This document shows, one piece after another, positions 14,421 through 60,967 of a DNA stretch of 64,000 bases. Origin of the DNA: an uncultured virus (IMG/VR IMGVR_UViG_3300023109_001853). Its lineage: Duplodnaviria; Heunggongvirae; Uroviricota; Caudoviricetes. Both the position numbers and the translations under genes were made by a program. Positions within the stretch are counted from its first letter, which is position 1. Every line of letters begins with the position of its first letter. Location: the IMG/VR virus record IMGVR_UViG_3300023109_001853. The stretch is one strand, 5' to 3'. The notes below the pieces were generated by a model. It did not search any database. It was not told the origin of the DNA and saw nothing but the letters and a program-made list of their open reading frames with translations.

Positions 14421-14636
14421 TCAACCGCCTGGAACAAATTCTTTTGGAGTATACCATACTTTTTGATGATGTATACGTCCTAGCAGTTCTTGTATCTCGT
14501 GCATTTCTTCTTTTAGCTTTTCAGATACATCGCCTTGAGCAATGGCCATTCCTCTACGGCCAGCCTTTGCTCTTAGTGCTGATTCAATAACTTCAATGTC
14601 TCTTACAGTCAATTCAAAGTTTTTGTTAGGTTTCAT
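14421..14636 (-). CDS. hypothetical protein
   Basis: Start overlaps the stop of the pseudoazurin gene. Confidence 0.65.
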   Translation of the reverse strand: MKPNKNFELTVRDIEVIESALRAKAGRRGMAIAQGDVSEKLKEEMHEIQELLGRIHHQKVWYTPKEFVPGG

Positions 14637-15064
14637 AGTTCGCCTAGCAATGCTTTCAATTTTTTCTTTGACTTGCCTTTTACTTTAGCGTCTTTGATAG
14701 CGTCAACACCTTCTTGTGTTAGCTCGCCTACAACTACAATAGCAATCATGCCCGTGCTCTTGTGTGGTGTACATTGGTACAAGTATACGCCTGGCTCGTC
14801 AAATGTATATGTGTATTCTTTTGATAGTTTTGATTTCTTAGGTGCGTCCCAACCATCTGGTCCTGCAATGAATTCTACATTGTGACCCTTCTGTGTTGGT
14901 TCCCAAGTAATTGTATCGCCTACGTCAATACGTGCAATGTCTTGACTGTAAACCATTTTGGCTCCGTCATCACGTTTGTTTAACATTTCGATAGTTGTGT
15001 CTGCGGCAAACGCAGGAGTAGATAGTGCAACCATGACGGCTACTGTAGATAGTAAATTCTTCAT
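14633..15064 (-). CDS. pseudoazurin-like blue copper protein
   Basis: Signal peptide; IEMLNK..GAKMVY..VGDTITW..GHNV; YQCTPH..GM copper ligands. Confidence 0.92.
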   Translation of the reverse strand: MKNLLSTVAVMVALSTPAFAADTTIEMLNKRDDGAKMVYSQDIARIDVGDTITWEPTQKGHNVEFIAGPDGWDAPKKSKLSKEYTYTFDEPGVYLYQCTPHKSTGMIAIVVVGELTQEGVDAIKDAKVKGKSKKKLKALLGEL

Positions 15065-41326: not shown

Positions 41327-41727
41327 GTGGTATAAAATTAATTACACCTCCAGATAGAATATACACTACAGAATATAGTTTTTTACTAATATACCCTAGT
41401 AAAATTGTTAAAGAACAACTTCAAACATTGTTAATAGATACAAGCGAATCGATCAATGTATATCTGTATGAACCAGAAAAAGAACACGAAATAGAATGGT
41501 TACTTGATGTATTTTATCAAGTTGATACTGTTATATTGGATATTGACAATTGTGACACTAGAATAAGAGAATTAGCATCTTACTTTTTGTCAAAAGATAA
41601 AACTTATTGGTTGACAAACGGCCAAGACTCGTTTTATAATGTTATTAGTAAAAATAGAGTCTTTGACTTAGACTTTTTAAAACACAAAATAGGAGAAAAT
41701 TTTGAAGCACCGACAGCAAAGAAATAA
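41323..41727 (+). CDS. hypothetical protein
   Basis: ATGA overlap, LITPPD motif. Confidence 0.7.
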   Translation: MSGIKLITPPDRIYTTEYSFLLIYPSKIVKEQLQTLLIDTSESINVYLYEPEKEHEIEWLLDVFYQVDTVILDIDNCDTRIRELASYFLSKDKTYWLTNGQDSFYNVISKNRVFDLDFLKHKIGENFEAPTAKK

Positions 41728-41959
41728 CGATAAGTTTGAGAAACGTGGGTTAAGCGTTGAAGTACGAAACAATGATGTTAACCAAGCACTACGCAAATTT
41801 AAAAAGAAAGTTCAAGAAGACGGTATTCTTCAAGAACTACGTGAAAGAGAACACTTTGTAAAACCAAGTTTGAAGCGTAAGAAAGCAAAAGCAGCTGGTA
41901 GAGCTCGCTGGCTTAAACAACAAGCAAAAGATAATATACATTCTAAAAGACTTTATTAA
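41702..41959 (+). CDS. rpsU: 30S ribosomal protein S21
   Basis: [37 protein letters not shown]. Confidence 0.93.
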
Positions 41960-43116: not shown

Positions 43117-43404
43117 ATGAATCTAAGACCAATTTTAGATAAAATTATTATCAAACCACAAGAACCTGAACAAAAAACAACAGGCGGCATTATTATTGCT
43201 AATGTTAAAAATGAAGGTATTATTAAAGCTGAAGTATTATCAGTTGGCCCTGGCGCTCATGATAGTAAGGAAGACTTTGTAGTACCAGATGTTAATGTAG
43301 GAGACATTGTCTTAGTTAATAATATGTCAGGACAACAAATTAATTACGATGACAACGAATATATTGTTATAACCAATAATGAAATAGTTGCTATTCTTGA
43401 TTAA
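43117..43404 (+). CDS. groES: co-chaperonin GroES
   Basis: LRPILDKIII..KTTGGIII..VGPG..VGDIV. Confidence 0.93.
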   Translation: MNLRPILDKIIIKPQEPEQKTTGGIIIANVKNEGIIKAEVLSVGPGAHDSKEDFVVPDVNVGDIVLVNNMSGQQINYDDNEYIVITNNEIVAILD

Positions 43405-43411
43405 CTAATTA

Positions 43412-45093
<1,682 letters not shown>

Positions 45094-45109
45094 TGTGATA
45101 AATAAATAT

Positions 45110-45191
45110 GTACAGCAAAAAGATCTTTTGCTGTGCATAGGACGCCGAAAGGGTCCTATATTAAATCTTGCTTTTTTAAAGGAGAAACAAA
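45110..45191 (+). promoter_or_regulatory. ROSE-like RNA thermometer in hsp20 5' UTR
   Basis: Three hairpins; ATAGGAC-GCCGAAAGG-GTCCTAT then AATCTTGCT pairing with AGGAGA. Confidence 0.8.
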
Positions 45192-45665
45192 ATGACAAGA
45201 CTAACAACTCTAGACCTACCACAACTACACAGAGCTACTATCGGCTTTGACAGACTATTTAATGAACTGGACAGACAGTTTGCAAATAGTCCAAACGGAA
45301 ATGGTTACCCTCCATACAACATTGCACAAATCAACGAAGACGAGTATATGATCTCTCTTGCGGTTGCGGGCTTTGGTATGGATAATTTGGATATTACCAA
45401 AGACGGTAAAATTCTGCGTATTGAAGGTACATCTCCGAAAGGTGATGAAAATGTAAACTACCTACACAAAGGTATCGGCGGACGTAACTTCCGCAGAGAG
45501 TTTACACTTGCCGACCATGTAGACGTAATAAATGCTGGGCTTGAACTAGGTATGCTTAATGTACACTTAAAGCGTGAGCTTCCAGAAGAACTACAACCAA
45601 AGACAATTAAAATCACAGACTGGAATGGTCATGTGACAGAAACAATCGACACAGACAGCAAGTAA
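45192..45665 (+). CDS. ibpA: small heat shock protein Hsp20 (IbpA-like)
   Basis: IGFDRLF, YPPYNI, LAVAGF, YLHKGI..R.F.REFTLA, GML.V.L. Confidence 0.95.
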   Translation: MTRLTTLDLPQLHRATIGFDRLFNELDRQFANSPNGNGYPPYNIAQINEDEYMISLAVAGFGMDNLDITKDGKILRIEGTSPKGDENVNYLHKGIGGRNFRREFTLADHVDVINAGLELGMLNVHLKRELPEELQPKTIKITDWNGHVTETIDTDSK

Positions 45666-45671
45666 GCAGTC

Positions 45672-45697
45672 TAGGGGGAGTGAAATATCTCCCCCTA
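45672..45697 (+). terminator. terminator-like hairpin
   Basis: TAGGGGGAG..CTCCCCCTA. Confidence 0.7.
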
Positions 45698-45716
45698 TTA
45701 TTAATAGGAGAAACAA

Positions 45717-46022
45717 ATGAGTAATGATACAGACATCATTATTGACGAAAAAGTTGAAATTAATATTTCTGAACCTACAAAATATAAAATCGTCATGTTA
45801 AATGATGAAAAAACTCCGATGGAATGGGTAATTCATGTACTAACAGTAATATTTGGACATTCCCAAGAAACTGCCGAAAAGCTAACACTTCAAATTCATA
45901 ACGAAGGAAGTGCAATTGTTGGTATATACAGTTACGAAATAGCCGAACAGAAAACTGTCGAAACAATAAATTCAAGTAGAGACAAGGGCTTCCCGTTACA
46001 AGTAAGGATGGATAGTGAGTAA
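45717..46022 (+). CDS. clpS: ATP-dependent Clp protease adaptor ClpS
   Basis: YKIVMLNDEKTPMEWVI.VL..IF..IHNEG.AIVG.YSYEIAE.K..FPL. Confidence 0.93.
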   Translation: MSNDTDIIIDEKVEINISEPTKYKIVMLNDEKTPMEWVIHVLTVIFGHSQETAEKLTLQIHNEGSAIVGIYSYEIAEQKTVETINSSRDKGFPLQVRMDSE

Positions 46023-46578
46023 TTTAAAAGAATTAACAAAAGAACAACACACAAATGCAGAACGACAAAGTTTTGTAAAAGTGCTAATGAGTGGCAAAAT
46101 TAATCCAAAATTTTATGCTGCATATTTATGGAATCAACATAAGAAATACGATCTACTAGAAGCTATGGCAGCAGTAAACGGTATTTGGATTGATATTCCT
46201 TTTCCAATACATCGTAAGATGGCTATTGAGCAAGACTTCTTAGAGCTATGGGATGACAAAGAAAACCCACCGCCAATTGTTCCTAGTACACACGAATACA
46301 TTGAACACATGCGTGACATAATGACAGACCGTGATGCTATCATGGCACATATCTATACATTACATATGGGAGATTTGAGCGGCGGACAAATGATTGGGCG
46401 TAAAGTTCCTGGTGAAGGGCGCATGTATCAGTTTGAAGGCGACATTAACGAGATTAAAGAAGCAATTCGATCACAGACGTCAGATGACATGGCTGAAGAA
46501 GCAAAATACGTTTTTGATTCAGCAGCTAATTTATTTAAAGAGCTTATGGAGTTAGACATTGAGCATTATCTGGAATAG
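46015..46578 (+). CDS. hemO: heme oxygenase
   Basis: LKELTKEQHTNAE proximal His; AHIYTLHMGDLSGGQ; EEAKYVF. Confidence 0.92.
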   Translation: MSNLKELTKEQHTNAERQSFVKVLMSGKINPKFYAAYLWNQHKKYDLLEAMAAVNGIWIDIPFPIHRKMAIEQDFLELWDDKENPPPIVPSTHEYIEHMRDIMTDRDAIMAHIYTLHMGDLSGGQMIGRKVPGEGRMYQFEGDINEIKEAIRSQTSDDMAEEAKYVFDSAANLFKELMELDIEHYLE

Positions 46579-47245
46579 ACTAATAGAGTGTAAAGATGAA
46601 ATTATCAACATTTTTGAAGAACGTGCAACAGAGTTTGACGAACCGGGTCTTGCCCATTTTAATAACGATTTGTGGATTAATCGCGTTTGGTGCAATGATA
46701 ATGTTAGGCGGGCTCACATTGATGTTGTAGATGCTCGTGACTCTAAAGGGTTATGGATGATGCACGTATGCGTGTTTCCTGTGCTTAACAATGATGGTCC
46801 TATTTACGGCTTTGATGTTATTGCAGGTAAAAACAAAATGACAGGCGCATTCCACGACTTCTCAGCAAGTAGCGACCCTAATCATCCTATGATTGAAGGA
46901 TACAAAGAAGCAGTTGCAGACTTTATTCCTAAAAAACAACGACAGCTACCAGAGTGGGCAACTAACATCTTTACAGATAAAATGCTTGCCGCAGGTAATG
47001 TAAGTACAGAAGAAGAAGCTGTAGCAATTATTGAACTTGCTCTCAATAACTTACGTGCTTACTTTGACGAGATTGGAGAATTTACTGGATTCGGCGATCG
47101 TGACTTAGTAGCAGCATCGCAAAACTATTACTGTCATAATCAGCAACAGAATCCGCACACTCCTCGCACAATGAAGTCGTTAGGACTTGACGAAGCAGAC
47201 GTAGATAGGTTCTGCACAGATATGCTGTTTCCTAAAATAGTATAA
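46559..47245 (+). CDS. pcyX: ferredoxin-dependent bilin reductase, PcyX/PcyA-like
   Basis: RRAHIDVVD..GLWMMH.C.FP..PIYGFDVIAG..GAFHDFS; LPEWA..IF; YC..QQQNPHT; adjacent to heme oxygenase. Confidence 0.85.
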   Translation: MSIIWNRLIECKDEIINIFEERATEFDEPGLAHFNNDLWINRVWCNDNVRRAHIDVVDARDSKGLWMMHVCVFPVLNNDGPIYGFDVIAGKNKMTGAFHDFSASSDPNHPMIEGYKEAVADFIPKKQRQLPEWATNIFTDKMLAAGNVSTEEEAVAIIELALNNLRAYFDEIGEFTGFGDRDLVAASQNYYCHNQQQNPHTPRTMKSLGLDEADVDRFCTDMLFPKIV

Positions 47246-47272: not shown

Positions 47273-48661
47273 ATGCGCTATAATGATTTTAAATTAGTAG
47301 AAACAAAAGTACTAGCAGAAGCCAAAGGTGTATTTGGTCGCAACGCAGGCGATAGATTTGTACACGGTGATGGTAGAGAATATAGTATCGTTGAAGTAGT
47401 AGCATACCCAGATGCACAAGTACAACGTTTTGAAGATGCCGCAGCAAGAGATGCCGCAATTAAACAAATTGAAGCAGAAAATAAAATTACTATTGAATGG
47501 GTAAACAAGCCTGCATCTAACATGCTTGCATTTGGACTTGCAATTTTAGATGATGCAGATAGCGGACATGTTTACTGGGGCAAATACTTACAATTTGCTA
47601 AACACGATATGTTAGGCACCTGGGGAAATAATCAAGTTCCGCCAGGTTGGCAACTAGCTACCAAAGGTGCGCAGAAGATACAAGCTGGATATGATCCACA
47701 ACATCTAATTGCTACTGAACAACAGTTTAGTGGTGTTGAATCTATTATTAAACAAGTAGAATCTAAAGCACCAGAAGGCATACAAGATATATTTGTTGGT
47801 GCTCTAAAAGACCTATCACAAGGTAACGGAAATGTTGTATTCCCAGGAATGAATGAGCAGGCACCTGCTATCCGTGATTACTTTGGTGAAATTATGCAAC
47901 CAGTTGCAATGATGGGCGGAGTTATTGGCGGACAAGCAGAAGCAGCTCGCGAAGTATTAGCAGAAGGAGCTCGCTGGAGTGACTGTAAAGTTTATTGGCC
48001 AATGGCAATGAACGCAGCATTATGCGATAGTTTCTTAATTGCTCCTAATGGACAAGAAATTGGTATTAGTTCAAAAGGCGGTTCAGGTGCAAAAGCTAGT
48101 GCTAAAAATTTATTTGATGCCGCTGAAAAAGCTAGAAAAGAAGGCAACACAGAGTTGCTTGAAAACAATGCATACACTGTTGATATTGTAACAAGGTTCC
48201 ATGAACTAAGTGCAAAAGAAGGTCCTTGTTCAGTTGGTGAATATCTAAACATTCCCGGCATTACGCAAAAACTACAAGAAGAAATTAACGGATATATGCA
48301 AACTGGTAAGTCAGATTTAGAAGGCATATCAGAAGCAGCAACAGACGTACTTGCTCCTTATAATGTAGTTCAAAGTACAAAAGGATTTAATGCCGGATAT
48401 GCAATCCTTTCAGGTGTTGCTAAAACAGTTGCTAAAGAAATTAATAAGAATCCTAATTTTACCAAAGGCGCTCTTGCATTGCTTAATCAATCAAGTGTTA
48501 TCCAAGTTTACACTAAGATGGGCAAGCGTGGCGATGACGCAGTACTAGGTGCATTTACAGCAGTGTATCCTCCCAACTTCGAAGGCAAAATTCTATTAGA
48601 CGGTGGCAAGAACTATTATAGTTCAAGAGTCGGCGGCAAGATGGCCTTTGGTTTTGATTAA
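47273..48661 (+). CDS. late protein (putative virion internal), possible nuclease-like motif
   Basis: TATAAATA promoter; MRYNDFKLVE N-terminus; LCDSF..IGISSKGG. Confidence 0.6.
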   Translation: MRYNDFKLVETKVLAEAKGVFGRNAGDRFVHGDGREYSIVEVVAYPDAQVQRFEDAAARDAAIKQIEAENKITIEWVNKPASNMLAFGLAILDDADSGHVYWGKYLQFAKHDMLGTWGNNQVPPGWQLATKGAQKIQAGYDPQHLIATEQQFSGVESIIKQVESKAPEGIQDIFVGALKDLSQGNGNVVFPGMNEQAPAIRDYFGEIMQPVAMMGGVIGGQAEAAREVLAEGARWSDCKVYWPMAMNAALCDSFLIAPNGQEIGISSKGGSGAKASAKNLFDAAEKARKEGNTELLENNAYTVDIVTRFHELSAKEGPCSVGEYLNIPGITQKLQEEINGYMQTGKSDLEGISEAATDVLAPYNVVQSTKGFNAGYAILSGVAKTVAKEINKNPNFTKGALALLNQSSVIQVYTKMGKRGDDAVLGAFTAVYPPNFEGKILLDGGKNYYSSRVGGKMAFGFD

Positions 48662-48713: not shown

Positions 48714-48989
48714 CTACAAGCGATATTTTTTCATCTTAGCAATTAATGCAGTGCGGCCTATGTCTAACGATATAGCCGCTTTTGTTTGATTACCAGATGC
48801 TAATTTAAGTGCATTTGTAATACGTTCACGTTCTAATGCTTCTAATTCTGCACACAAGCTATATTGGACCTCATCTGATAGTATTTCACCATGTGATCCC
48901 CACATCTCTTCAAACATATCAAAGAAATATTCTTGCTCATTTATACGTTGTTGTTTCTCATTTGATGTTTCCTGTTGTATTTTTAACAT
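48714..48989 (-). CDS. Fis-type helix-turn-helix protein
   Basis: LEALERERITNALKLASGNQTKAAISLDIGRTALIAKMKKY. Confidence 0.88.
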   Translation of the reverse strand: MLKIQQETSNEKQQRINEQEYFFDMFEEMWGSHGEILSDEVQYSLCAELEALERERITNALKLASGNQTKAAISLDIGRTALIAKMKKYRL

Positions 48990-49039
48990 GAGTAAGTGAT
49001 TTCCTATATTACAGATAAATACTGATGGAGAGTATTTTT

Positions 49040-49615
49040 ATGAGATTTTTAATTACTATAGTTTTATTTATGACAGCAACAACCGCTGGTGCTAATGAGT
49101 TGACGTTTGGATTTAAAAGTCCAGCGTTTAGTGGCATCGGATACAGTAGCCATGTGCTTACACTAGAGCAACTAGAAACAAACCGTAAGCAAAAGATCAA
49201 AGACGATGAACAAGCAGCAATTGAAAAAGCAGAGCGTGATTATAAGTCTACTAATGCATATAAGTTTAAGAACAATTTAGAATCACGTGTTTACGCTACA
49301 CTAAGTAAACAGATTGCAGATAGCATGTTTGATCAAACAGATGCTTGGCTAGAATTAACTGAGTACGGATATGGCGCAGTTATTACATACAACGGTAAGG
49401 AGTATAAGTCAACTACTAATCTTAATACAACAACACCTGGCACAGACGGCGCCAATTGGGAGTTAAGAGATAGTGAATGGGCAACTTCAGAAACACCGTT
49501 TGGTGACGTAGTAAGCTGGAAGCGCGAAGATGACAGAATTTATGTAGAAGTTAAAGATTCAAACGGCGATACTGTTGCTGAGTTTGATGTACCAGTTGGG
49601 GAGTTTGCATTTTAA
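49040..49615 (+). CDS. csgF: curli assembly protein CsgF-like with inserted CBM5/12-like module
   Basis: Signal peptide then ELTFGFKSPAFSG; F.NNLESRVY..LS.QI..MF; directly upstream of csgG. Confidence 0.8.
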   Translation: MRFLITIVLFMTATTAGANELTFGFKSPAFSGIGYSSHVLTLEQLETNRKQKIKDDEQAAIEKAERDYKSTNAYKFKNNLESRVYATLSKQIADSMFDQTDAWLELTEYGYGAVITYNGKEYKSTTNLNTTTPGTDGANWELRDSEWATSETPFGDVVSWKREDDRIYVEVKDSNGDTVAEFDVPVGEFAF

Positions 49616-50457
49616 TGAAACTTTTAGTGTCTACTTTAGCATTAGTATTTTTAAGTGGATGTTCAAGCTTGGTTCATATACCAGAGCCTGAGATGCCTGT
49701 GCTATTAAAAAATGAAAACACAGAATTTCATAACATATCTGCTCCGTCAACAGGCAAGTTGGTAGCAGCAGTATACGGATTTACGGATAAGACAGGGCAA
49801 CGTAAACCTAGTGAAAAGATGGCTAACATTAGTACAGCCGTTACACAAGGTGCAGAAGTATGGTTAATCAAGGCACTGCAAGAAGTAGGCGGCGGTAAAT
49901 GGTTTCAAGTAGTAGAGCGTGTGGGCTTAGATAATCTAACAAAAGAACGTCAGATTATCCGCCAAGCAAGACAAAGCGTAGGTGACGAACGTCAGTTAAA
50001 GCCTATGATGTTTGCTGGTGTAATAATAGAGGGCGGGATCATAGGGTATGATTCTAATGTACTAACTGGTGGCGCAGGTGCCAGATACTTAGGTGTTGGA
50101 CCAAGTACACAATACCGCAAGGATGTAGTTACAGTAACAATGCGTATGACTAGCACACAAACAGGCGAAGTATTATTGAGTGTAAGTACTACTAAAACTA
50201 TAATTAGTACAGGATCAAGTATGACATTCTTCCGTTTCTTTGATATGGGTACAACTAGTGTAGAAGTAGAAGCAGGACATACTATTAACGAGCCAGTAAA
50301 CTATGCAGTAAGAGTAGCAATTGAACAGGCAGTAGTAGAATTAATTAAAGCAGGCGAAAAGCGCAAACTTTGGAAATTTGATGTGCCGGAGAGTATTGAA
50401 CTATCCGAAGAACAACAGCAACAAGTTATAGAAGAAATAGAATCACTAGCAGAATAA
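49615..50457 (+). CDS. csgG: curli secretion channel CsgG-like lipoprotein
   Basis: Lipobox LSGC; AVYGFTDKTGQRKP, STAVTQGA, WFQVVER.GL.NL.KERQIIR, EGGIIGYDSN..TGGAGARYLG, NEPV. Confidence 0.95.
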   Translation: MKLLVSTLALVFLSGCSSLVHIPEPEMPVLLKNENTEFHNISAPSTGKLVAAVYGFTDKTGQRKPSEKMANISTAVTQGAEVWLIKALQEVGGGKWFQVVERVGLDNLTKERQIIRQARQSVGDERQLKPMMFAGVIIEGGIIGYDSNVLTGGAGARYLGVGPSTQYRKDVVTVTMRMTSTQTGEVLLSVSTTKTIISTGSSMTFFRFFDMGTTSVEVEAGHTINEPVNYAVRVAIEQAVVELIKAGEKRKLWKFDVPESIELSEEQQQQVIEEIESLAE

Positions 50458-50463
50458 TTAAGT

Positions 50464-50497
50464 AGGTGTAAAATTATTTACACCTTGGGGTTAAATA
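50464..50497 (+). promoter_or_regulatory. palindrome AGGTGTAAA-N4-TTTACACCT abutting a TAAATA late promoter
   Basis: Contains TGTAA-N6-TTACA, the CRP/FNR-family spacing. Confidence 0.55.
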
Positions 50498-50542
50498 CTA
50501 AAGTATAGGAATAAGGGTTATATCTATACGAAGGGGGCAATC

Positions 50543-51196
50543 ATGTCAAACAGAATAAACAAAATTAGTCTAGCATTGCTAGTCTCACTGCTCGGGACAA
50601 CAGCAGCATGGGCCAGTGATGTTTATATAGATCAGGCTGGTTCGACCAGTACTATTGATATCACCCAGACAGGTGACGGCAACACTGTTGGTAGTGCAGG
50701 CACAGCCAGTACAATCACAGGTGACAACTCAGATGTTGATATTACGCAAACAGGTGCAACAAACATAGCCGATGTGTCATCGTCAGTAGGTACTAGCGGT
50801 ACTACATTAGATTATACTGCAACAGGTAGTAGTAACATATTAGCAGCCGAAATTGACGGTGCAGCAGATACTAAACTTACTGCTACTATTACAGGCGACA
50901 GTAACGAGCTAACACTATGTGGAACACTTGCAACTGATGCGGCATCAGCCGCAAGCGCAACTTGTGCAACTGGTGTACAAGCAGATACAACAGACAGTAC
51001 AGTTGCAATTACAGGTAGCAGTAATAAGGTAGCAATAGCAGCCGGTGCAGCAAGTGCAGTAAATAACATCACAATTGGCGGGAATGTTGCAAGTGGCTTT
51101 AACATAGTTAACCTAAAGCAATCTGGTTCAGACACTCCAAATGTTACACTCAACATGGACGGTGATAGCAATGCCGTTAATATCATACAAAACTAA
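50543..51196 (+). CDS. secreted curlin-repeat (CsgA/B-like) protein
   Basis: Signal peptide; repeats such as YIDQAG, IDITQTGDGN, VDITQTGATN, ITGDSN, ITGSSN, MDGDSN. Confidence 0.8.
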   Translation: MSNRINKISLALLVSLLGTTAAWASDVYIDQAGSTSTIDITQTGDGNTVGSAGTASTITGDNSDVDITQTGATNIADVSSSVGTSGTTLDYTATGSSNILAAEIDGAADTKLTATITGDSNELTLCGTLATDAASAASATCATGVQADTTDSTVAITGSSNKVAIAAGAASAVNNITIGGNVASGFNIVNLKQSGSDTPNVTLNMDGDSNAVNIIQN

Positions 51197-52283
51197 AATA
51201 CTCGCAATCGGGTTAATGGCGCTTTTATTAGCGCCTAATTCAATGTCTGCGAATGTAGGTAAAGTTACAAAACAAATTGGAGAAGATGCAAGCATTTCAA
51301 GAGATGCTGATACAATCATAACCGGTGAAGGCACAGGCATTAATATGAATGATGCTATCACTACTTCTAAAGCCAAACTAGAACTTACATTTGATGACAA
51401 TACCAAAGTATCAATAACACGACAAAGTAAACTAGTGATTGATGACTTTGTATATGATGCAAACAGTGGTGCAGGTAAACTAGCAATGAATGTAGCAATG
51501 GGCACAGTGCGTTATGCATCAGGTGCTATTGCTAGAAACAGTAGAGAAAACGTTAGACTACGAACACCTACAGCAACTATCGCAGTACGTGGAACAGACT
51601 TTACTATGACAGTAGATGAAATAGGACGCAGTCTTGTTATCCTACTACCTACTTGTCCTGAGCCCGATGAACCTGCAACATGTTTTACAGGCGTAATTGA
51701 AGTTAGTACTGATGTGGGCATGGTTGTTCTAAATCAAGCGTTCCAAGCAACTGTTGTTGCTAGTGCTACATCTGCTCCTACTAAGCCAAAGATTATCGAT
51801 ATACTAGAACAAAATATTGACAATATGCTTATTATTAGTCCACCGCCTGAGTTGCCAGGTGGCATGGCATATATTGACCAAGCAGCAGAAAGTAGTTTTT
51901 TAGAAGACGATGCATTTATCTTTGAAGAATTAATTGCAGAATACTTAACAGCCGACGAATTAAGATATAGTGAACTTGACATTGACTACTTAGGTGGAGA
52001 GTTTCTAGATAATATACTTGACTTAACCAATATGTTATCCAACGACGAATTAAGTTCAGACCCTGTACTACCAAACATACACAACTTTAAAGGATATATA
52101 CAATATAGTTATAACGAAGAAGTTATATATTTAAGGGCAGAACGTCCGCCGCACGTTGCACAAGTTAATGTAGATCGGTGGACATACGGATTTGTAAATA
52201 TAGCACAGGATGGTATTATTGCGCCATTACAAATCAACGATGGAGGTACAGATGTTATCATCAATATTACGCAGTCTGAGTAG
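51171..52283 (+). CDS. FecR-domain periplasmic protein
   Basis: Signal peptide; D.I.T..LTFDDNT.V..SKLVIDDFVYD..GTVRYASG..RTPTATIAVRGTDF. Confidence 0.88.
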   Translation: MPLISYKTKILAIGLMALLLAPNSMSANVGKVTKQIGEDASISRDADTIITGEGTGINMNDAITTSKAKLELTFDDNTKVSITRQSKLVIDDFVYDANSGAGKLAMNVAMGTVRYASGAIARNSRENVRLRTPTATIAVRGTDFTMTVDEIGRSLVILLPTCPEPDEPATCFTGVIEVSTDVGMVVLNQAFQATVVASATSAPTKPKIIDILEQNIDNMLIISPPPELPGGMAYIDQAAESSFLEDDAFIFEELIAEYLTADELRYSELDIDYLGGEFLDNILDLTNMLSNDELSSDPVLPNIHNFKGYIQYSYNEEVIYLRAERPPHVAQVNVDRWTYGFVNIAQDGIIAPLQINDGGTDVIINITQSE

Positions 52284-53583
52284 TGCCTTGTTGGTACTAT
52301 GCTTTGCTACAAGTGCAATGGCTAATGATGTATTCATATATTATAAAAATAGTGGCACTGATGCTACTACAAGCCAGTACAATAATTTAAAAAGTATATT
52401 AGAAAATTTAGGCTTTACTGTATCAAGTAGCACAAGTGGTACAGTTAGTTCAACAGATGTATCAGGCCAAGATTTAGTTATTGATATGACAGGCACTTCT
52501 AATTGTGGTAGTAATTGTAAATCAGTGTATGATAGCTATGTAAGTGGCGGCGGTAAATTAGTTATAGCAGGAGTCAACGGCGCAAGCAACAGAAATACTA
52601 GTATAGAAGCACTGATCGAAACTAAGATGAGTGTGGGCAGTTTTACTCTAGGTGGTGGATGTAATGCCTGTTACTATTCAGTTGCAAAAGGTGACTATGC
52701 AAGTAGCACAGCAAGCGAAAATACTTTGCCAGGTCCAGACAAATACATGACAGGTGTGACTGGTGGTACAACAGTAGCCGCTATGTCGGTCACTAATAAT
52801 AATATTTCAAATTGGCACAAATGGGACTATGGTACAAATGGTGGTGCAGTGTACGTGACATTTGGTTATGGACAATTTCTTTCAAGTCACACATATGCAA
52901 ATAATATGGTTATATTCGTTACAGCTATAATGGTAGAGGAAGGGTTGTATACTACTAATACTTCTTCCTCTCCCCCCACACCAGTATACGGATCAAGCGC
53001 ACCAACAACAGCACAGCAATCTAGGATGGATTCAAAACTTGCACTAGCTGCTCAAGGACAGGACAATACTGTTGAAGCATCAATATTCGGCGATGATAAT
53101 GATATAAACATTACACAAGCAGGCGGACCGAGCTACATACTTCTTTCTATTCTCGGCAATCAAAACCAATTCGAAGCTACACAGAATATGAGCGGTGGTG
53201 CTATGGCATATAATGAAACGACTATAATCGGCGATACCAACGATGTTGATATAATACAACAAGGTACCGGCGACAAAGCAGCATTTGTTAATATAATCGG
53301 CGACAGCAACACAGCAAATATTAATCAAAAAGACAGTGGCACTCACTTTGTTGATCTTTCTATTGAAGGCGACAATCATCTAGTAGATATACTACAAGAA
53401 GGCGCTGGCGACCATGCTGCTACAGTAGAGCTTGATGGCACACAACCTTGGAACTTTGATCTAACACAAAGTGGCAACACTAGCCAAACTTATACACTAC
53501 CACACGCAATGAGTGACGGCAGCAGTGTAAGCGGAACTTGTATGGCTATCGGCGGATGTAATATAACTGTAATACAAGAATAA
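52252..53583 (+). CDS. secreted protein: alpha/beta N-terminal domain plus C-terminal curlin repeats
   Basis: GGAGG RBS, signal peptide; IFGDDNDINITQ, IIGDTNDVDIIQQG, IIGDSNTANINQ, IEGDNHLVDILQEG. Confidence 0.8.
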   Translation: MLSSILRSLSSALLVLCFATSAMANDVFIYYKNSGTDATTSQYNNLKSILENLGFTVSSSTSGTVSSTDVSGQDLVIDMTGTSNCGSNCKSVYDSYVSGGGKLVIAGVNGASNRNTSIEALIETKMSVGSFTLGGGCNACYYSVAKGDYASSTASENTLPGPDKYMTGVTGGTTVAAMSVTNNNISNWHKWDYGTNGGAVYVTFGYGQFLSSHTYANNMVIFVTAIMVEEGLYTTNTSSSPPTPVYGSSAPTTAQQSRMDSKLALAAQGQDNTVEASIFGDDNDINITQAGGPSYILLSILGNQNQFEATQNMSGGAMAYNETTIIGDTNDVDIIQQGTGDKAAFVNIIGDSNTANINQKDSGTHFVDLSIEGDNHLVDILQEGAGDHAATVELDGTQPWNFDLTQSGNTSQTYTLPHAMSDGSSVSGTCMAIGGCNITVIQE

Positions 53584-53625
53584 ATACTGTTAGCAAAAGG
53601 GCATATTGCTAGAAAGTAGGGCGTA

Positions 53626-54108
53626 TTGATAGATCCATTTACAGCCGTAGCTGCGGCAACTACAGCGTTTAATACTGTAAAAAAATTCGTACACGCAGGA
53701 CAAGATTTTGAAAACTGTATGGGACAAATGGGCAAGTGGTACACTAATGTATCTGATTTCCGTAAAGGCCAGCAGATGCAAAAGAATCAACCAGTATTTA
53801 GAAAACTACTAGCCTCAGGCTCAGTCGAAGAAGAAGCACTCAATTTACTAATCCACGATAAGAAGGTTAGAGAAATGGAGAAAGAGTTACAGGCAATGCT
53901 TAACGCTCGATTTGGTTATAAAACCTGGGATGAACTTAAACAACTTCAGCGTAAGATCCGCGCAGACAGACAGAAGCAAATATACGATGCTGCTGAACGT
54001 AGGCAATCGTTTATAAACACTGTTGCGCTTTTTCTATTAATAGGAGCAATGATTTGCACAGTAGCTGGAATATTTTATTTTGTAGCATTAGCAAAAGGAA
54101 TGCTTTAA
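53626..54108 (+). CDS. hypothetical protein with C-terminal TM helix
   Basis: MIDPFTA N-terminus, coiled coil, TM; TAAATA at 53581. Confidence 0.75.
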   Translation: MIDPFTAVAAATTAFNTVKKFVHAGQDFENCMGQMGKWYTNVSDFRKGQQMQKNQPVFRKLLASGSVEEEALNLLIHDKKVREMEKELQAMLNARFGYKTWDELKQLQRKIRADRQKQIYDAAERRQSFINTVALFLLIGAMICTVAGIFYFVALAKGML

Positions 54109-54330
54109 ATGATACATGCTTTTATACTAATTGTTCTTATAGCTGATAAGCAAGAGCCATCGCCAATGTACTTTAGAAGTATTGATGTGTGTCAATATTA
54201 CGCGGCACGAATACCTAGACAGTATGGTAATTATGGAAACAAACATATGGTGCCTGCTGAACATAGAGTCACGGCATATTGTAAACCTAAGAAAGTCAAC
54301 CCACAAACTACTGTAGTATATGATAGGTAA
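54109..54330 (+). CDS. hypothetical protein
   Basis: AAGGA RBS; YF.SI..C..YA..AYC.P. Confidence 0.7.
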   Translation: MIHAFILIVLIADKQEPSPMYFRSIDVCQYYAARIPRQYGNYGNKHMVPAEHRVTAYCKPKKVNPQTTVVYDR

Positions 54331-54519
54331 ATATTGCTATGAAGCAGAGCAAAGTTTTAGAGAAAGAATTACAAGATTCAAAAAAACTCTTAGTGCATCG
54401 TCATCAAAGAACTCGTAAAAAAGTTCCAGAGCAGTATTGCCCAGTAATAACTTACGACGGAGTAACAAAGAACCCCGAGTATAAACAACGCCCAATACAG
54501 GGTTTTTAAAGGATTAAAA

Positions 54520-56556
54520 ATGAAAAGATTACTAAGCCCTTGGTGGGCATTAATAACACTAGGGATATTAGTATACGCATTTGCAAATCCAAGCAACTTC
54601 TTACAAAGTATCAAACTAAACTATTTTGATCAATTAATTGTTAACCAAGAACCAGTAGAGAATAATATCTATGTTGCAGAGATAGACGAAGCAGCATTAG
54701 AACTGTACGGACAGTATCCGTTTCCACGTAACATATACTCAGACATTATCAAAGACTTGTACGCTCGAGGAGCCGGATTAGTTGTATGGAATGTAATGAT
54801 GCCTGAAGTAGACAGACTAGGCGGTGATGCAGAACTAGCAGAAACTATGTTAGCATTGCCTGTTATACTTGCTAGTCGGCCTAGTGACAAAACAAAGAAC
54901 GAACCTATCAATCCAGGTGCAGCAATAATCAATTCAGATTACTTGGACACTATATTACCTTATGGAGGTATTATTGCAAACATACCTATACTTGAAAACA
55001 ACTCAGTAGGTGCAGGTATTGTAAGTACAGAGCCAGAGATAGATGGAGTAGTACGCCGTATGCCTACTGTTGCAGTTGTAGACGGAGTATTGTATCCAAG
55101 TCTAGCACTAGAAACATTACGTGTTATAGCAGGCGATCCTAGTTTCCAAATAAAATTAAGCCCAATTGGTATAGACAAAATGCGCATACCACAGTTTGGT
55201 GTTATACCTACAGACGCAGAAGGCAGAGTATGGATAGACTGGAGTCAGCGCAGTAAGAGTGTAAGTATAACAAACTTGCCCGCAGACCTAGAAGGCGCAG
55301 TTGTTATTGTCGATGTTACAGCAGCAGGTATTGCTAACCCTGTACCAACAGCACTAGGAGCGCAGTACGCAGGCACAACGCAAGCCGCAGTACTAGGCAC
55401 TATGTTTGCTGGCACTAACATACAACGTCCTGTGTGGTCACCGCAAGCAGAGCTATTATTACTTGCAATAGGCGGCTTGTTGCTTATCTTATTAAGTCGT
55501 TGGATGTTTGTAGGACTTGCTACAACTGTTGTACTAATAGGCGGAACTATACCTTACAGCATATACGCATATGCACACGAAAAAGTGTTACTAGATGTAA
55601 CAGCGCCAGTCATAGTGTTTGTTATAGTCGCATTGCAAGTATATGGTATCAAATTTGTACGAGAGTTCTTAGAGAAGCAAGCAATTAAGAAACAGTTCGC
55701 AGGATACGCATCACCAACTGTTGTGCGTTTGTTGCAAGAGAATCCTGCACTTATAAAAGACGGTATGAAGAAAGAAGTTTCAATTTGCTTCTCAGACCTA
55801 AGAGGCTTTACTCCACTAGGTGAATCATTTGGTGATGATGTTAAAGGCCTAACTAAAATTATGAACAACTATATGGATGCTATTACACAGCCTGTACTAG
55901 ATGCAGACGGAATGATAATCAAATATATTGGTGATGCAAGTATGCACGTACACAATGCACCAATTGATGACAAACACCACCCTCGTACAGCAGTACAGTG
56001 TGGATTAGATATGTTAAAAGCGGTGGAGAAATTTAATGATAAGATCACTTCTGAAGGAAGACCTCCCGTTGGTATGGGGGCAGGGATCAATACTGGACTT
56101 GGATACTTGGGTGAAATGGGAAGCACAGCTAGACACAGCTATGACGTATTGGGCGACTCGGTTTCAACGGCAGCAAGAATTGAAAGCAAGTGTAAAGAAT
56201 ACGGATGTTTGTTGCTCGTTGGAGAATCTACATACGAAGCAACAAGAACAGATTTCTTCTACCTCAAAGTAGATGACTTACAAGTTAAAGGTAAGAGTGT
56301 AGGACTTAAAATTTACACAGTTCTAGATAAAACATATCCTGCCTGGCGTAGTGCGCAGAAGAAACACGAGCAGATGCACGAAGATTATCGTGCGCAGCGT
56401 TTTGATGATGCTATAGACAAGTGTAAGATGTTGTATACACACTTTGATCACAAGATGGAAGGTTACTACGACATGTGGATTGAACGCTGTGAGTATATGA
56501 AAACACAGGACTTACCCAAAGACTGGAACGGCGTGTTTATTGCTACTTCGAAGTAG
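54520..56556 (+). CDS. CHASE2-domain class III adenylate cyclase
   Basis: TM, IDEAAL..YGQYPFPR, DGVVRRMP (CHASE2), 3 TM, FSDLRGFT, IKYIGDA, GAGINTG, YDVLGDSVSTAARIES, VKGK. Confidence 0.95.
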   Translation: MKRLLSPWWALITLGILVYAFANPSNFLQSIKLNYFDQLIVNQEPVENNIYVAEIDEAALELYGQYPFPRNIYSDIIKDLYARGAGLVVWNVMMPEVDRLGGDAELAETMLALPVILASRPSDKTKNEPINPGAAIINSDYLDTILPYGGIIANIPILENNSVGAGIVSTEPEIDGVVRRMPTVAVVDGVLYPSLALETLRVIAGDPSFQIKLSPIGIDKMRIPQFGVIPTDAEGRVWIDWSQRSKSVSITNLPADLEGAVVIVDVTAAGIANPVPTALGAQYAGTTQAAVLGTMFAGTNIQRPVWSPQAELLLLAIGGLLLILLSRWMFVGLATTVVLIGGTIPYSIYAYAHEKVLLDVTAPVIVFVIVALQVYGIKFVREFLEKQAIKKQFAGYASPTVVRLLQENPALIKDGMKKEVSICFSDLRGFTPLGESFGDDVKGLTKIMNNYMDAITQPVLDADGMIIKYIGDASMHVHNAPIDDKHHPRTAVQCGLDMLKAVEKFNDKITSEGRPPVGMGAGINTGLGYLGEMGSTARHSYDVLGDSVSTAARIESKCKEYGCLLLVGESTYEATRTDFFYLKVDDLQVKGKSVGLKIYTVLDKTYPAWRSAQKKHEQMHEDYRAQRFDDAIDKCKMLYTHFDHKMEGYYDMWIERCEYMKTQDLPKDWNGVFIATSK

Positions 56557-56740
56557 CTTCGTGTTTTAACAGCAGAGCATTAACTTCATCTGTTTTAATT
56601 AACCAACCGCTTTCGTTTACAATGAAAACATCGCCTGGTTTGTACAACCCTTTGTCCATTACTTCAGTTGGTGTATCACCTACAACTTTAAAGCCTCTAC
56701 CTCCTGGTATGCTATCAATAGTATAATCCATCCACATCAT
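56543..56740 (-). CDS. hypothetical protein
   Basis: Coupled to the upstream minus-strand gene. Confidence 0.6.
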   Translation of the reverse strand: MMWMDYTIDSIPGGRGFKVVGDTPTEVMDKGLYKPGDVFIVNESGWLIKTDEVNALLLKHEATSK

Positions 56741-57014: not shown

Positions 57015-57350
57015 TTATTTTTTAGGTGCAGGCTTTCCTGTAGAATTGAATGTTTCGCCGCGGCTTTGATATTTTACAATAGCTTCATCTAAGAACGCTT
57101 GCTGTTCTGGATTAAGACTGGCTCTATGCTCTAACACCATACTAAGTTTGCTGTTAAGTCTAATCATGTCGTTGTCTAACATACGCACACGATCAACAAG
57201 ACGTATAAGTGTACCCATGCTTTGTCCAATAACAGGATCGATAGTTTCAGTCACCCACTTCCAGATAAAGAATATGAAATATCCCATGCCCATCGCAGCA
57301 ATAACTGGAAAGCCAAAGTCTTTGATTGCACCTGCGATATCAATTTCCAT
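57015..57350 (-). CDS. single-TM coiled-coil protein (paralog of 57353)
   Basis: FGFPVIAA..GYFIF TM; DRVRMLDNDMIRL. Confidence 0.75.
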   Translation of the reverse strand: MEIDIAGAIKDFGFPVIAAMGMGYFIFFIWKWVTETIDPVIGQSMGTLIRLVDRVRMLDNDMIRLNSKLSMVLEHRASLNPEQQAFLDEAIVKYQSRGETFNSTGKPAPKK

Positions 57351-57352
57351 TG

Positions 57353-57631
57353 TCAGTCCCTTCGAGCATCGTCTTTGCCTTCATTAGCAGCTATCCTGTC
57401 AATGTTAGGTTTAACTCCAAGTGCGTAACTTAGTAGTGCATCTATCTTAACTAAATCGTTGTTCATAGTTTGTACACGATTGTCCAGCGATCCGATAATA
57501 CCATTCAGTGTTTTTACACTGTCTTCAACTCCGCCTAAGATAAAACTAAGTGTTAAAAAAACAAAATATCCAGCCGCTAATGCCCCAGCGATTGGAAATC
57601 CTACTTCACTTGCTAGTGTTAGAAAATCCAT
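57353..57631 (-). CDS. single-TM coiled-coil protein (paralog of 57015)
   Basis: VGFPIAGA..GYFVF TM; NRVQTMNNDLVKI. Confidence 0.75.
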   Translation of the reverse strand: MDFLTLASEVGFPIAGALAAGYFVFLTLSFILGGVEDSVKTLNGIIGSLDNRVQTMNNDLVKIDALLSYALGVKPNIDRIAANEGKDDARRD

Positions 57632-57688
57632 ATGTTCCCTCTTTGCCCTATACTATTATTTATATAAATATTATCAAGGGAGAGGGCA

Positions 57689-58219
57689 ATGAAATATTTA
57701 CTAGGCGCAACAGTTTTGGCGCTATCAGCCGCTTGCACAACACCGGGCAACAGTATAGAAAACCCCATATCAGAACCTAGACAAAAAATACGTGTAGGAT
57801 TAGATAATCCGGCAATTCGAGCATTTAAGTACATAGACTATACAGAACGCACACACAGAGCAGAACTTAGAGAACTTACAGGCATTGACCCTGTACGTAC
57901 AGAATGGTGTGCAGCTTTTATAAATGCCGTACTAGAAGAAAGCGACATTGTAAGTAATAACGATCACAAATATCCATTAACAGCAAGAGCGTTCCTGCAA
58001 TGGGGTGTCGAAGTATCAGAACCAGAGCCGGGTGATGTTGTTGTATTTCCAAGAGGCAACTCAAGTTGGCAAGGGCATGTTGGATTTTATTTAAAAGCTG
58101 AAGTTCTAAATGGAGTAGAGTACTATTGGATACTAGGCGGAAACCAATCTAATAAAGTTAGCATAGTAAGATATCGTGCGAGCAATGCATTAGGCATTCG
58201 TCGAGAATCTTCTATATAA
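57689..58219 (+). CDS. TIGR02594-like NlpC/P60/CHAP peptidoglycan hydrolase lipoprotein
   Basis: Lipobox-like SAAC; WCAAFIN, AR.F..WG, PGDVVVF.RG, GHVGF, LGGNQ. Confidence 0.9.
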   Translation: MKYLLGATVLALSAACTTPGNSIENPISEPRQKIRVGLDNPAIRAFKYIDYTERTHRAELRELTGIDPVRTEWCAAFINAVLEESDIVSNNDHKYPLTARAFLQWGVEVSEPEPGDVVVFPRGNSSWQGHVGFYLKAEVLNGVEYYWILGGNQSNKVSIVRYRASNALGIRRESSI

Positions 58220-60552: not shown

Positions 60553-60759
60553 ATGAGTGAACAAAAACAATGGTTATATAAGGTAGAAGACATTTTTGAA
60601 GACATACCCGATGATCCAAAAAATGTTAATATGAATATTCCAAAAGAAATTTCAGACGAAATTGGACTAGTCCCTGGAGATCCGATTAAAATAAGCTGGG
60701 GAGACCAAGGTAGTATTATTATAGAAAAAATAGAAAAGGATTCAAGTGGCGAAAAATAA
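60553..60759 (+). CDS. AbrB/MazE-like small DNA-binding protein
   Basis: NIPKEI..IGL.PGD.I.I..GSIIIEK. Confidence 0.75.
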
Positions 60760-60967
60760 CGAGTTATTTGAAATGGAGGGCACAGTAGTAGAAGTTCTCC
60801 GTAATCAGATGTTTAAAGTTGAATTAGATAATGGGCATATAGTTACTTGCTACACAGGCGGCAAAATGCGTAAATTTAAGATACGTATTGTAGTAGGTGA
60901 CAGTGTTACGGTAGAAATGACACCATATGACTTAGAAAAAGGCCGCATTATATATCGTGACAAATAG
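60746..60967 (+). CDS. infA: translation initiation factor IF-1
   Basis: [46 protein letters not shown]. Confidence 0.96.

Follow-up and report, generated by a model that had tools for sequence, protein, structure and literature searches.

A viral curli cassette with a FecR-domain protein and a CHASE2 nucleotide cyclase in an uncultured caudovirus: two joined modules and a proposed role in export and envelope sensing

The 64,000-nucleotide stretch of uncultured caudovirus DNA analysed here in full (IMG/VR record IMGVR_UViG_3300023109_001853; hereafter the window) carries on its plus strand, at positions 49025-56556, a co-oriented block of genes that, judged from its sequence, is a further copy of the viral curli, or type VIII secretion system (T8SS), cassette published for marine phages. 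Open reading frame (ORF) listing and comparison with Pfam and PHROG place in the block, in this order, csgF, csgG, a first curlin-repeat gene (curlin-1), fecR, a second curlin-repeat gene (curlin-2), three small ORFs and the gene of a CHASE2 class III cyclase (Table 1). The layout is already in print, and what the window adds is structural and comparative detail: an origin of the cassette from two modules, modular heads on curlin-2, a C-terminal motif shared by three exported proteins, a coupled switch in the cyclase and, in the five phage genomes searched, no classical receptor for cyclic AMP (cAMP). We think it slightly better than an even bet that these observations belong together, and that the two joined modules serve protein export, a surface adhesin and sensing of the envelope through FecR and CHASE2.

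The cassette and its relatives in phages

All Pfam matches quoted for the main genes exceed the curated cut-offs of that database, and PHROG families are available for CsgF, CsgG, the FecR protein and the full-length cyclase, so that these proteins are known from deposited phage genomes. The block has the features of type VIII secretion, namely a CsgG lipoprotein, a CsgF encoded beside it and curlin-repeat substrates with signals for Sec export; among the 105 window ORFs scanned, no Pfam family corresponded to the CsgE gate, the CsgC chaperone or the CsgD regulator. The reading frames of curlin-1 and fecR overlap, as do those of fecR and curlin-2, and the stop codon of csgF abuts the start of csgG.

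A preliminary description of the region, made from its letters, had named CsgF, CsgG, a curlin, FecR, a curlin with an extra domain, a CHASE2 cyclase and a helix-turn-helix (HTH) gene, and every one of these calls is borne out by Pfam or PHROG. The gene set is real, but the full layout is not uncharted as had been supposed: Wittmers et al. (2022, mSystems; PMC9599517), in their passages on the cassette, report CsgF, CsgG, CsgA/B, FecR, a second CsgA/B and an adenylate cyclase in podo- and myo-pelagiphages, find FecR and the cyclase missing from the T8SS operons of bacteria, infer that the cluster came from alphaproteobacteria and give metatranscriptome hits for the cassette, which they detected at all 65 GOV2.0 stations. 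The window holds that same set, csgF, csgG, curlin, fecR, (curlin) and adenylate cyclase, as one block in a phage genome. The terms 'CHASE', 'PA14', 'lectin', 'discoidin' and 'signal peptide' are absent from the main text of the article. Full-text literature from 2020 on that combines curli, FecR, phage and adenylate cyclase yielded nothing beyond this article, and among the matches listed for CHASE2 with FecR there was nothing on phages. Earlier partial descriptions of viral curli are those of Zaragoza-Solas et al. (2020; PMC7029224) and Buchholz et al. (2022; PMC9004378). The latter, in their passages on the phage Melnitz, propose a pinholin or secretin role and state that csgA/B are missing, a statement contradicted by the Melnitz record, where two proteins with curlin repeats, one with a FecR domain and a cyclase are annotated.

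The window cyclase is 53.8% identical to that of Methylophilales phage Melnitz (MZ577097) and 33.8% identical to that of Pelagibacter phage HTVC008M (KC465899), and in the records of both phages the six genes are annotated in the order seen here. Scanning IMG/VR with the FecR protein gave 137 viral contigs, of which 80 were kept, and gene presence was scored by tblastn with the window proteins: CsgG was found at 77 of the 80 loci, CsgF at 76, curlin-1 at 70, the cyclase at 67 and curlin-2 at 65. On each of the 13 contigs that lack a cyclase, under 3.8 kb of sequence follows fecR. The survey of synteny that had been suggested as a check on the preliminary description thus finds cyclase and fecR linked to csgFG wherever the viral contig is long enough (67/80), and the block stays together across very divergent phages. 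The distance from fecR to the cyclase is 2.2 kb in the window; at some loci (L025-L028, L034-L035, L038, L063 and L069) the cyclase is upstream or inverted, still within 7.5 kb.

Set beside the viral T8SS cluster of pelagiphages, the window has the same gene set and order, both being from marine phages; it differs in having three small ORFs before the cyclase (the first of them present in 8/80 relatives), a divergent HTH_8 gene and a weak CBM5/12-like insert in CsgF. The podophage versions have an upstream histidine kinase in the account given in PMC9599517, whereas Pfam scans of the window show none. A megablast of the region against the phage collection gave no match, and the nearest record, a fragment of 20 kb, contains no CHASE2. 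Near-identical contigs (0-3 differences) that lie over csgF, csgG, curlin-1 and curlin-2 are present in one seawater metatranscriptome library; runs X22-X24 contained diverged relatives only, most pieces being 90-95% alike. Stretches of the cassette without cover in the RNA contigs carry no information on expression.

Table 1. Features of the cassette and its flanks, with positions in the window
Feature	Position	Strand	Matches and remarks
CsgF-like protein, 196 aa	49025..49615 (likelier start 49040)	+	Pfam CsgF (PF10614) E 1.7e-9; phrog_35372 E 5e-36
CsgG outer-membrane lipoprotein pore	49615..50457	+	Pfam CsgG (PF03783) E 2.5e-53; lipobox LSGC
Curlin-1, 217 aa	50543..51196	+	Pfam Curlin_rpt E 2.5e-5
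Exported FecR-domain protein, 380 aa	51141..52283	+	Pfam FecR (PF04773) E 3.6e-10; phrog_37870 E 3e-86
Curlin-2, 457 aa (443-aa form from likely start 52252)	52210..53583	+	Pfam Curlin_rpt E 1.6e-6
CHASE2 class III nucleotide cyclase, 678 aa	54520..56556	+	CHASE2 (PF05226) E 1.6e-30; Guanylate_cyc E 1.5e-17; phrog_35576 E 3e-179, full length
Small protein, 160 aa, C-terminal membrane anchor	53626..54108	+	phrog_32327 E 1e-9; hydrophobic segment 127-160
Two small ORFs, 73 aa and 56 aa	54109..54509	+	No Pfam or PHROG match
HTH_8 protein, Fis-type, 91 aa	48714..48989	-	Pfam HTH_8 E 5e-11; divergent from csgF
ATAAATA, T4-type late-promoter-like	49015..49021	+	10 nt 5' of csgF ORF
Second ATAAATA, late-promoter-like	53580..53586	+	46 nt 5' of first small ORF, ahead of small ORFs and cyclase
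Terminator-like hairpin	56542..56557	+	On cyclase stop codon; consensus scan only

Two modules that are separate in bacteria

A scan with the FecR profile, covering one genome per prokaryotic species, returned 210 relatives, and 78 loci were kept. Ten of these (L083-L092), in metagenome-assembled genome (MAG) bins of assorted phyla, closely match the phage FecR and comprise eight phage-type cassettes, one 1.6-kb fragment and the locus L091. At the other 68, a full-length homologue of the CHASE2 cyclase (E <1e-100) adjoins fecR in 19 cases, and a match to CsgG, CsgF or curlin is found in none (0/68). The curli genes give the complementary picture: 401 alphaproteobacterial genomes hold seven close homologues of the window CsgG (42-50% identity), and within about 10 kb of these csgG genes CsgF is encoded in five cases and a curlin-like protein in six, FecR and the cyclase in none. 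Because FecR/CHASE2 pairs occur without curli genes and csgFG loci without the pair, the phage cassette is to be seen as a junction between two modules that the sampled bacteria keep apart.

The neighbourhood of FecR and a CHASE2 sensor, on which the preliminary description had built, is a recurrent bacterial pairing. The two lie close together at 67 of 80 viral and 19 of 68 bacterial loci, the Burkholderia 'BiofilmReg' operon (PMC5192318) combines a LysM-FecR protein with a CHASE2 histidine kinase and is linked to biofilm control, and in S. meliloti (PMC5498481) Clr, a cAMP regulator that acts downstream of CyaD1, CyaD2 and CyaK, all CHASE2 cyclases, has the FecR-domain protein SMc02177 (gene smc02177) among its targets. 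As in the phages, the bacterial pairs with COG4254-type FecR encode an exported FecR-domain protein beside a membrane CHASE2 sensor; they differ from the cassette in having no csgFG or curlin nearby (0/68) and other C-termini on FecR (LysM in Burkholderia). Similarity of the bacterial partners to the phage profile is confined to the FecR domain, and their C-terminal regions differ, none being known to Pfam (26 scanned). In the phage cassette, by contrast, fecR stands between two curlin genes and its product ends in a curlin-like motif. The alphaproteobacterial curli loci, for their part, resemble the cassette in CsgG (42-50% identical), in the adjoining CsgF and curlins and in the lack of CsgC/D/E, the last point being made also in the passages of PMC9599517 on these loci; they differ from it in that FecR and a CHASE2 cyclase occur within ~10 kb in 0/7.

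The locus L091 lies in an alphaproteobacterial MAG of 49% GC. At L091:9021-11832 a curlin, a full-length phage-type FecR (E 6e-88) and a second curlin follow one another, with no csgFG or cyclase within about 7-9 kb; the contig is of bacterial type, encoding a catalase-like protein, RoxA-like cytochromes and an IS66 transposase, and the genome has only a distant CsgG-family gene, with three CHASE2 proteins elsewhere. The trio could be a remnant of phage transfer or a cellular form of the middle trio of the cassette.

Export, adhesion and envelope sensing

The window CsgG aligns with the E. coli CsgG structures over residues 5-255 (E 9e-49). In the alignment to E. coli CsgG, an S and an I face the Y and F of the stretch KPYPASNFSTAV, which we take to be the constriction residues. 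CsgF consists of a signal peptide, the mature N-terminus NELTFGFKSPAFSG, a weak CBM5/12-like insert and the C-terminus VPVGEFAF, the ending VPxGxFxF being common to its homologues; phmmer of the window CsgF against PDB chains gave no E. coli CsgF chain at E up to 1. The protein exceeds most homologues in length (196 aa vs 146-189), and its residues about 107-146 (window 49340-49460) match CBM_5_12, of chitin-binding type, at E 7.7e-4, which is below the cut-off, and the ChBD of chitinase A1 at E 0.086.

CsgF, both curlins and FecR have signal-peptide-like N-termini, assigned by eye and hydropathy only and conserved across the alignments. In curlin-1 the signal peptide is followed by xIxQxGxxN repeats, whose invariant Q, G and N columns recur periodically (alignment A2), and the protein is a candidate fibre or nucleator subunit. 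Curlin-2 is more elaborate: it has, in the numbering of the 443-aa form, a signal peptide, an alpha/beta head at ~26-229 and a curlin-type beta-solenoid at 272-406, the latter a 12-strand solenoid-like run in the AlphaFold2 (AF2) model with a predicted local distance difference test score (pLDDT) of about 85-93. The C-terminal 190 residues are conserved curlin repeats, with 25 of 33 homologues matching Curlin_rpt. The heads of these homologues (n=33) vary, F5/8 type C being found in 3-4, PA14 in 3, GLEYA in 2 and ThuA in 1. For the head of the window protein there was no Foldseek match at E <= 0.001, and the best ones (E 1.3e-3 to 2e-3) are IFT52-N/ThuA-like with a root-mean-square deviation (rmsd) of 9-11 Å, a lead only. 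Given carbohydrate-binding heads on a curlin stalk, we read curlin-2 as a putative surface adhesin. The case that the preliminary description had itself named as damaging, in which the repeat proteins are virion parts, is unlikely and was rejected, as both curlins carry export signals.

The same genes could also be understood from the pore alone, with CsgG, with or without CsgF, acting as a pinholin- or secretin-like lysis timer or as an open uptake pore for nutrients or cofactors, and with the cyclase and FecR regulating the pore. The S and I opposite the presumed constriction residues of KPYPASNFSTAV fit this idea, as do the absence of a CsgE-like gate among the window ORFs (Pfam scans) and the presence, just downstream, of candidate lysis genes for a CHAP lipoprotein (57689-58219) and two phrog_18771 membrane proteins. 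Uptake through the pore is discussed in passages of Zaragoza-Solas et al. (2020; PMC7029224) and Wittmers et al. (2022; PMC9599517), and the absence of clumping in the cultures described by Buchholz et al. (PMC9004378) points the same way. A mere pore, however, leaves unexplained why curlin substrates with export signals accompany it (curlin-1 at 70/80 loci, curlin-2 at 65/80) and why CsgF retains an N-terminal segment of the TFxFxxPxFxG type, and a pore would have no use for the lectin-type heads of curlin-2, which are understandable on the outside of the cell; we consider a function limited to the pore quite improbable.

The FecR protein is made of a signal peptide, a beta-sandwich (38-206), a disordered linker (242-304) and a small C-terminal beta domain (320-378), and two of its Cys are invariant (alignments A1 and A3). 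In the AF2 model, built from a 52-row alignment (pLDDT 79), the C-terminal domain at 320-378 is confident, and the sandwich matches the cell-surface signalling domain of PupR (CCSSD; 6ovm_R), with Z 15.2, rmsd 2.6 over 136 residues and a Foldseek E of 8e-5; against a Bacteroides anti-sigma factor, Z is 13.8. The fold search for the C-terminal domain used the full-length model. The 5ix9 'cell surface anchoring domain' was dropped as a candidate fold for it, VIA-align having put the match on residues 36-132, the N-terminal half of the FecR domain.

This fold, which matches that of the periplasmic domain of PupR/FecR anti-sigma factors, and the name of the Pfam family agree with the reading given in the passages of Wittmers et al. 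(2022; PMC9599517) on FecR, by which the protein would be a ferric-citrate or iron-dependent regulator tying curli to iron. The likeness to such regulators ends there: the phage protein is a signal peptide, a sandwich and a C-terminal domain, with neither a cytoplasmic anti-sigma domain nor a membrane-spanning stretch inside the chain (AF2 model, hydropathy), and Pfam scans of the window ORFs reveal no extracytoplasmic function (ECF) sigma factor and no TonB-dependent transducer. Moreover, its bacterial relatives adjoin CHASE2 cyclases rather than fec-type genes (19/68 loci), and the FecR-plus-CHASE2 operons of Burkholderia are linked to biofilm control (PMC5192318). As anti-sigma domain, span, ECF sigma factor and TonB receptor are all missing, the iron-citrate reading is unsupported, and we find it barely credible.

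The three exported proteins in the middle of the cassette end alike, curlin-1 in DGDSNAVNIIQN, FecR in GGTDVIINITQSE and curlin-2 in CMAIGGCNITVIQE (GGCNITVIQE). The terminal pattern G.{2,8}[IVLF].[IVL].Q.{0,3} is found in 3 of the 75 window ORFs of >=100 aa, exactly curlin-1, FecR and curlin-2; among homologues, it is present in curlin-1 (44/57), FecR (44/55) and curlin-2 (35/51), set against CsgF (0/60), CsgG (0/61) and the cyclase (1/50). We regard the shared ending as a short motif only, as hhalign finds no wider homology between FecR and curlin-1, and as a hint that the three proteins may have a docking or strand-pairing element in common.

Motif and gene order both bear on whether the two modules have anything to do with each other in the phage. 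Curli might simply change the cell surface, by masking receptors and so excluding superinfection or by aggregation, with FecR and the CHASE2 cyclase independently raising cAMP or draining ATP on an unrelated periplasmic cue. Such independence would suit modules that are separate in bacteria, an ATAAATA at 53580 that could give the cyclase its own transcript and a cyclase whose place and strand vary in some phages; in the passages of PMC9599517 on podophages, moreover, the cyclase and the second curlin are said to occur less frequently. It sits poorly with a fecR that is embedded between the curlin genes with overlapping frames and not beside the cyclase, with the curlin motif at the end of its product and with the presence of the cyclase at every viral locus whose flank is long enough. 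L091, too, keeps curlin-FecR-curlin with no csgFG or cyclase nearby, an arrangement that links FecR to the curlins and not solely to the cyclase. On balance, we judge two unrelated functions unlikely.

The cyclase is organized like other CHASE2 receptors, with CHASE2 between an N-terminal span and a membrane block and an output domain behind them: a hydrophobic segment at 4-22 (TM1) is followed by the periplasmic CHASE2 domain (match 17-323), a hydrophobic block at 305-384, which by hydropathy can hold three spans, and the cytoplasmic cyclase domain. When the sequence is aligned with CyaB and Cya2, D426 and D472 fall on the metal-binding positions; neither these nor K468 and R553 vary in any of the aligned phage (49/49) or bacterial (19/19) cyclases. 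The adenine-specifying K and D of the preliminary description are present as K468 and D542, which we take from class III cyclase work to be the positions of substrate choice; what that description missed is Ser549 at the position of the transition-state Asn. Compared with class III adenylate cyclases in general, the window protein therefore has both metal Asp, the Lys and the Asp, and of the transition-state Asn/Arg only the Arg (Arg553). Position 549 is Ser in 22/49 and Asn in 27/49 phage cyclases, and Asn in 19/19 bacterial ones. The residues at 542 and 549 go together: in the 49 phage proteins the pair is S/N in 23, D/S in 22 (including the window and Melnitz) and T/N in 4, with D/N and S/S never seen, and the bacterial proteins (n=19) have S/N or T/N. 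The D/S state takes at least four changes on a FastTree tree of the cyclases. This coupled switch is located at 55143-56178 of the window and was followed over loci L001-L082.

The departure from the bacterial Asn, in the window and in 22/49 phage homologues, could mean that the cyclase is degenerate, makes another nucleotide or serves mainly as a scaffold or receptor, and Ser549 is always paired with Asp542 in a state that needs those several changes on the tree. Decay, however, is not what the remaining residues suggest: the metal Asp pair, Lys468 and Arg553 are invariant, the recurring coupled switch at two sites looks like a maintained working pocket, and 47 distinct complete cyclase ORFs from viral loci are all without internal stops. 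We rate a degenerate enzyme, or one with a product other than cAMP, as very improbable; the cyclase is probably active, and its product would most likely be cAMP.

Our preferred reading brings these parts together. Late in infection, curlin-1, exported and anchored by CsgG and CsgF, would serve as a short amyloid-like fibre or nucleator, and curlin-2 would follow as a curlin-anchored adhesin whose variable heads (PA14/GLEYA, discoidin, ThuA-like) make the cell surface sticky or mask it. The FecR protein would stay in the periplasm and, as in the bacterial pairs, act with the CHASE2 domain as a co-sensor, with its phage-specific C-terminal domain and motif tying it to the secretion apparatus or its substrates, and the cyclase would report the state of export, fibre or envelope as a cyclic nucleotide, most likely cAMP, which might alter the timing of lysis, the expression of late genes or the metabolism of the host. 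The signalling chain put forward in the preliminary description, from a surface event through FecR, CHASE2 and cAMP to aggregation or the timing of lysis, is an inference. A more specific proposal makes the cassette an outside-in device: FecR would dock through its terminal strand on CsgG/CsgF or the curlins, the CHASE2 cyclase would sense fibre assembly or cells, particles or superinfecting phage bound to the heads, and the nucleotide would set lysis timing or late expression through a non-classical receptor. That this whole sequence operates seems to us decidedly unlikely. Prediction of a complex between the CHASE2 periplasmic domain (28-330) and the FecR domain (38-245), with alignments as input, scored 0.00 in two runs and, having no controls, weighs neither way.

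Several observations tell against coupled export and envelope sensing. The invariant Cys pair of FecR and the several Cys of curlin-2 fit poorly with unfolded passage through CsgG, and the passages of Buchholz et al. (PMC9004378) on Melnitz-infected cultures report that no clumping was seen. The C-terminal domain of FecR is without a clear match to a solved fold (best Z 3.6), its terminal pattern was written after the sequences had been seen, and hhalign of the FecR against the curlin-1 alignments finds no homology (probability 3.9%). The transition-state Asn position of the cyclase is Ser549. The RNA-library contigs are no proof of transcription, DNA carry-over being possible. A reader of the cyclic nucleotide is also hard to find: the cyclic nucleotide monophosphate (cNMP)-binding domain (PF00027) was not found in five phage genomes (Melnitz, HTVC008M and three large viral contigs, one of them 100% complete) and occurs in only 2/41 sampled Pelagibacteraceae genomes; among the window ORFs, Pfam gave none. 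A CRP-type read-out is thus not evident for carriers that infect SAR11, and the host of the window may differ.

Regulatory elements, neighbouring genes and implications

The preliminary description had the genes lying behind phage late promoters. The shorter ATAAATA does stand before csgF and before the small ORFs, but the full box TATAAATA, the canonical late box of T4, is not enriched in the window (7 vs 7.4 expected) and is found ahead of none of the cassette genes. There are 25 copies of ATAAATA in the whole window, 15 of them no more than 80 nt ahead of an ORF start on the same strand; none is immediately ahead of the cyclase. Sigma-70-like sites are rarer than in shuffles (25 vs 34). Late promoters for the cassette are plausible and weakly founded, the signal being a 7-mer. 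The csgF start at 49040 is the likelier one because a GGAG lies 8 nt ahead of that ATG. The terminator scan of the region found 11 sites vs 7.9 expected. In the 85-nt gap between csgG and curlin-1, at 50464-50485, there is a perfect palindrome with a 9-bp stem, AGGTGTAAA...TTTACACCT, which may be a processing or attenuation site setting the ratio of pore to fibre subunit.

The divergent Fis-like HTH gene, given as part of the arrangement in the preliminary description, is real but not a conserved part of it; with homologues at 7/80 related viral loci, it is an occasional neighbour outside the core of the cassette. The three small ORFs between curlin-2 and the cyclase (53626-54509) went unmentioned there. 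A homologue of the 160-aa ORF lies between curlin-2 and the cyclase at 8/80 viral loci, and in the ESM Atlas the protein matched viral hypothetical proteins only; the 73-aa ORF has homologues at 4/80 (72-78% identity) and the 56-aa ORF has one, at L003 only. The HTH gene and the 160-aa and 73-aa ORFs are variable add-ons.

Just 5' of the cassette, behind a perfect TATAAATA box at 47241, a 462-aa protein (47273-48661) without a Pfam or PHROG family has homologues on the same side of the cassette at L003 (60% identity) and L004 (34%) and weak ones at L025, L026 and L079; the ESM Atlas places it in viral hypothetical clusters only. On the other side, a possible lysis corner (57015-58219) consists of two paralogous small membrane proteins (phrog_18771; 57015-57350 and 57353-57631, minus strand) facing the CHAP lipoprotein, with back-to-back TATAAATA boxes inside it at 57657 and 57663. 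Further upstream, at 43117-47245, Pfam identifies host-like accessory genes for GroES, GroEL, Hsp20, ClpS, heme oxygenase and ferredoxin-dependent bilin reductase, and the last two form a pair although the nearest cultured relatives infect the non-cyanobacterial OM43 and SAR11. Elsewhere in the window (2754-3854, 9470-10375, 14633-15064, 41702-41959 and 60746-60967) it identifies further accessory genes, those of two radical SAM/SPASM proteins, a plastocyanin-like copper protein, ribosomal protein S21 and an IF-1-like protein.

As news, the window itself is modest, being another carrier of a published layout. The cassette, however, is among the most widespread accessory blocks of ocean phages, detected at all 65 GOV2.0 stations according to the passages of PMC9599517 on its distribution, and hosts without curli genes would gain from it a new surface structure and a source of second messenger during infection. 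If the fibres and adhesins are real, they would have a bearing on particle formation, on the rates at which phages and hosts meet and on superinfection in the open ocean. If FecR and CHASE2 do read the state of the envelope, the phage cassette would provide a first handle on what the CHASE2 sensors of bacteria detect.

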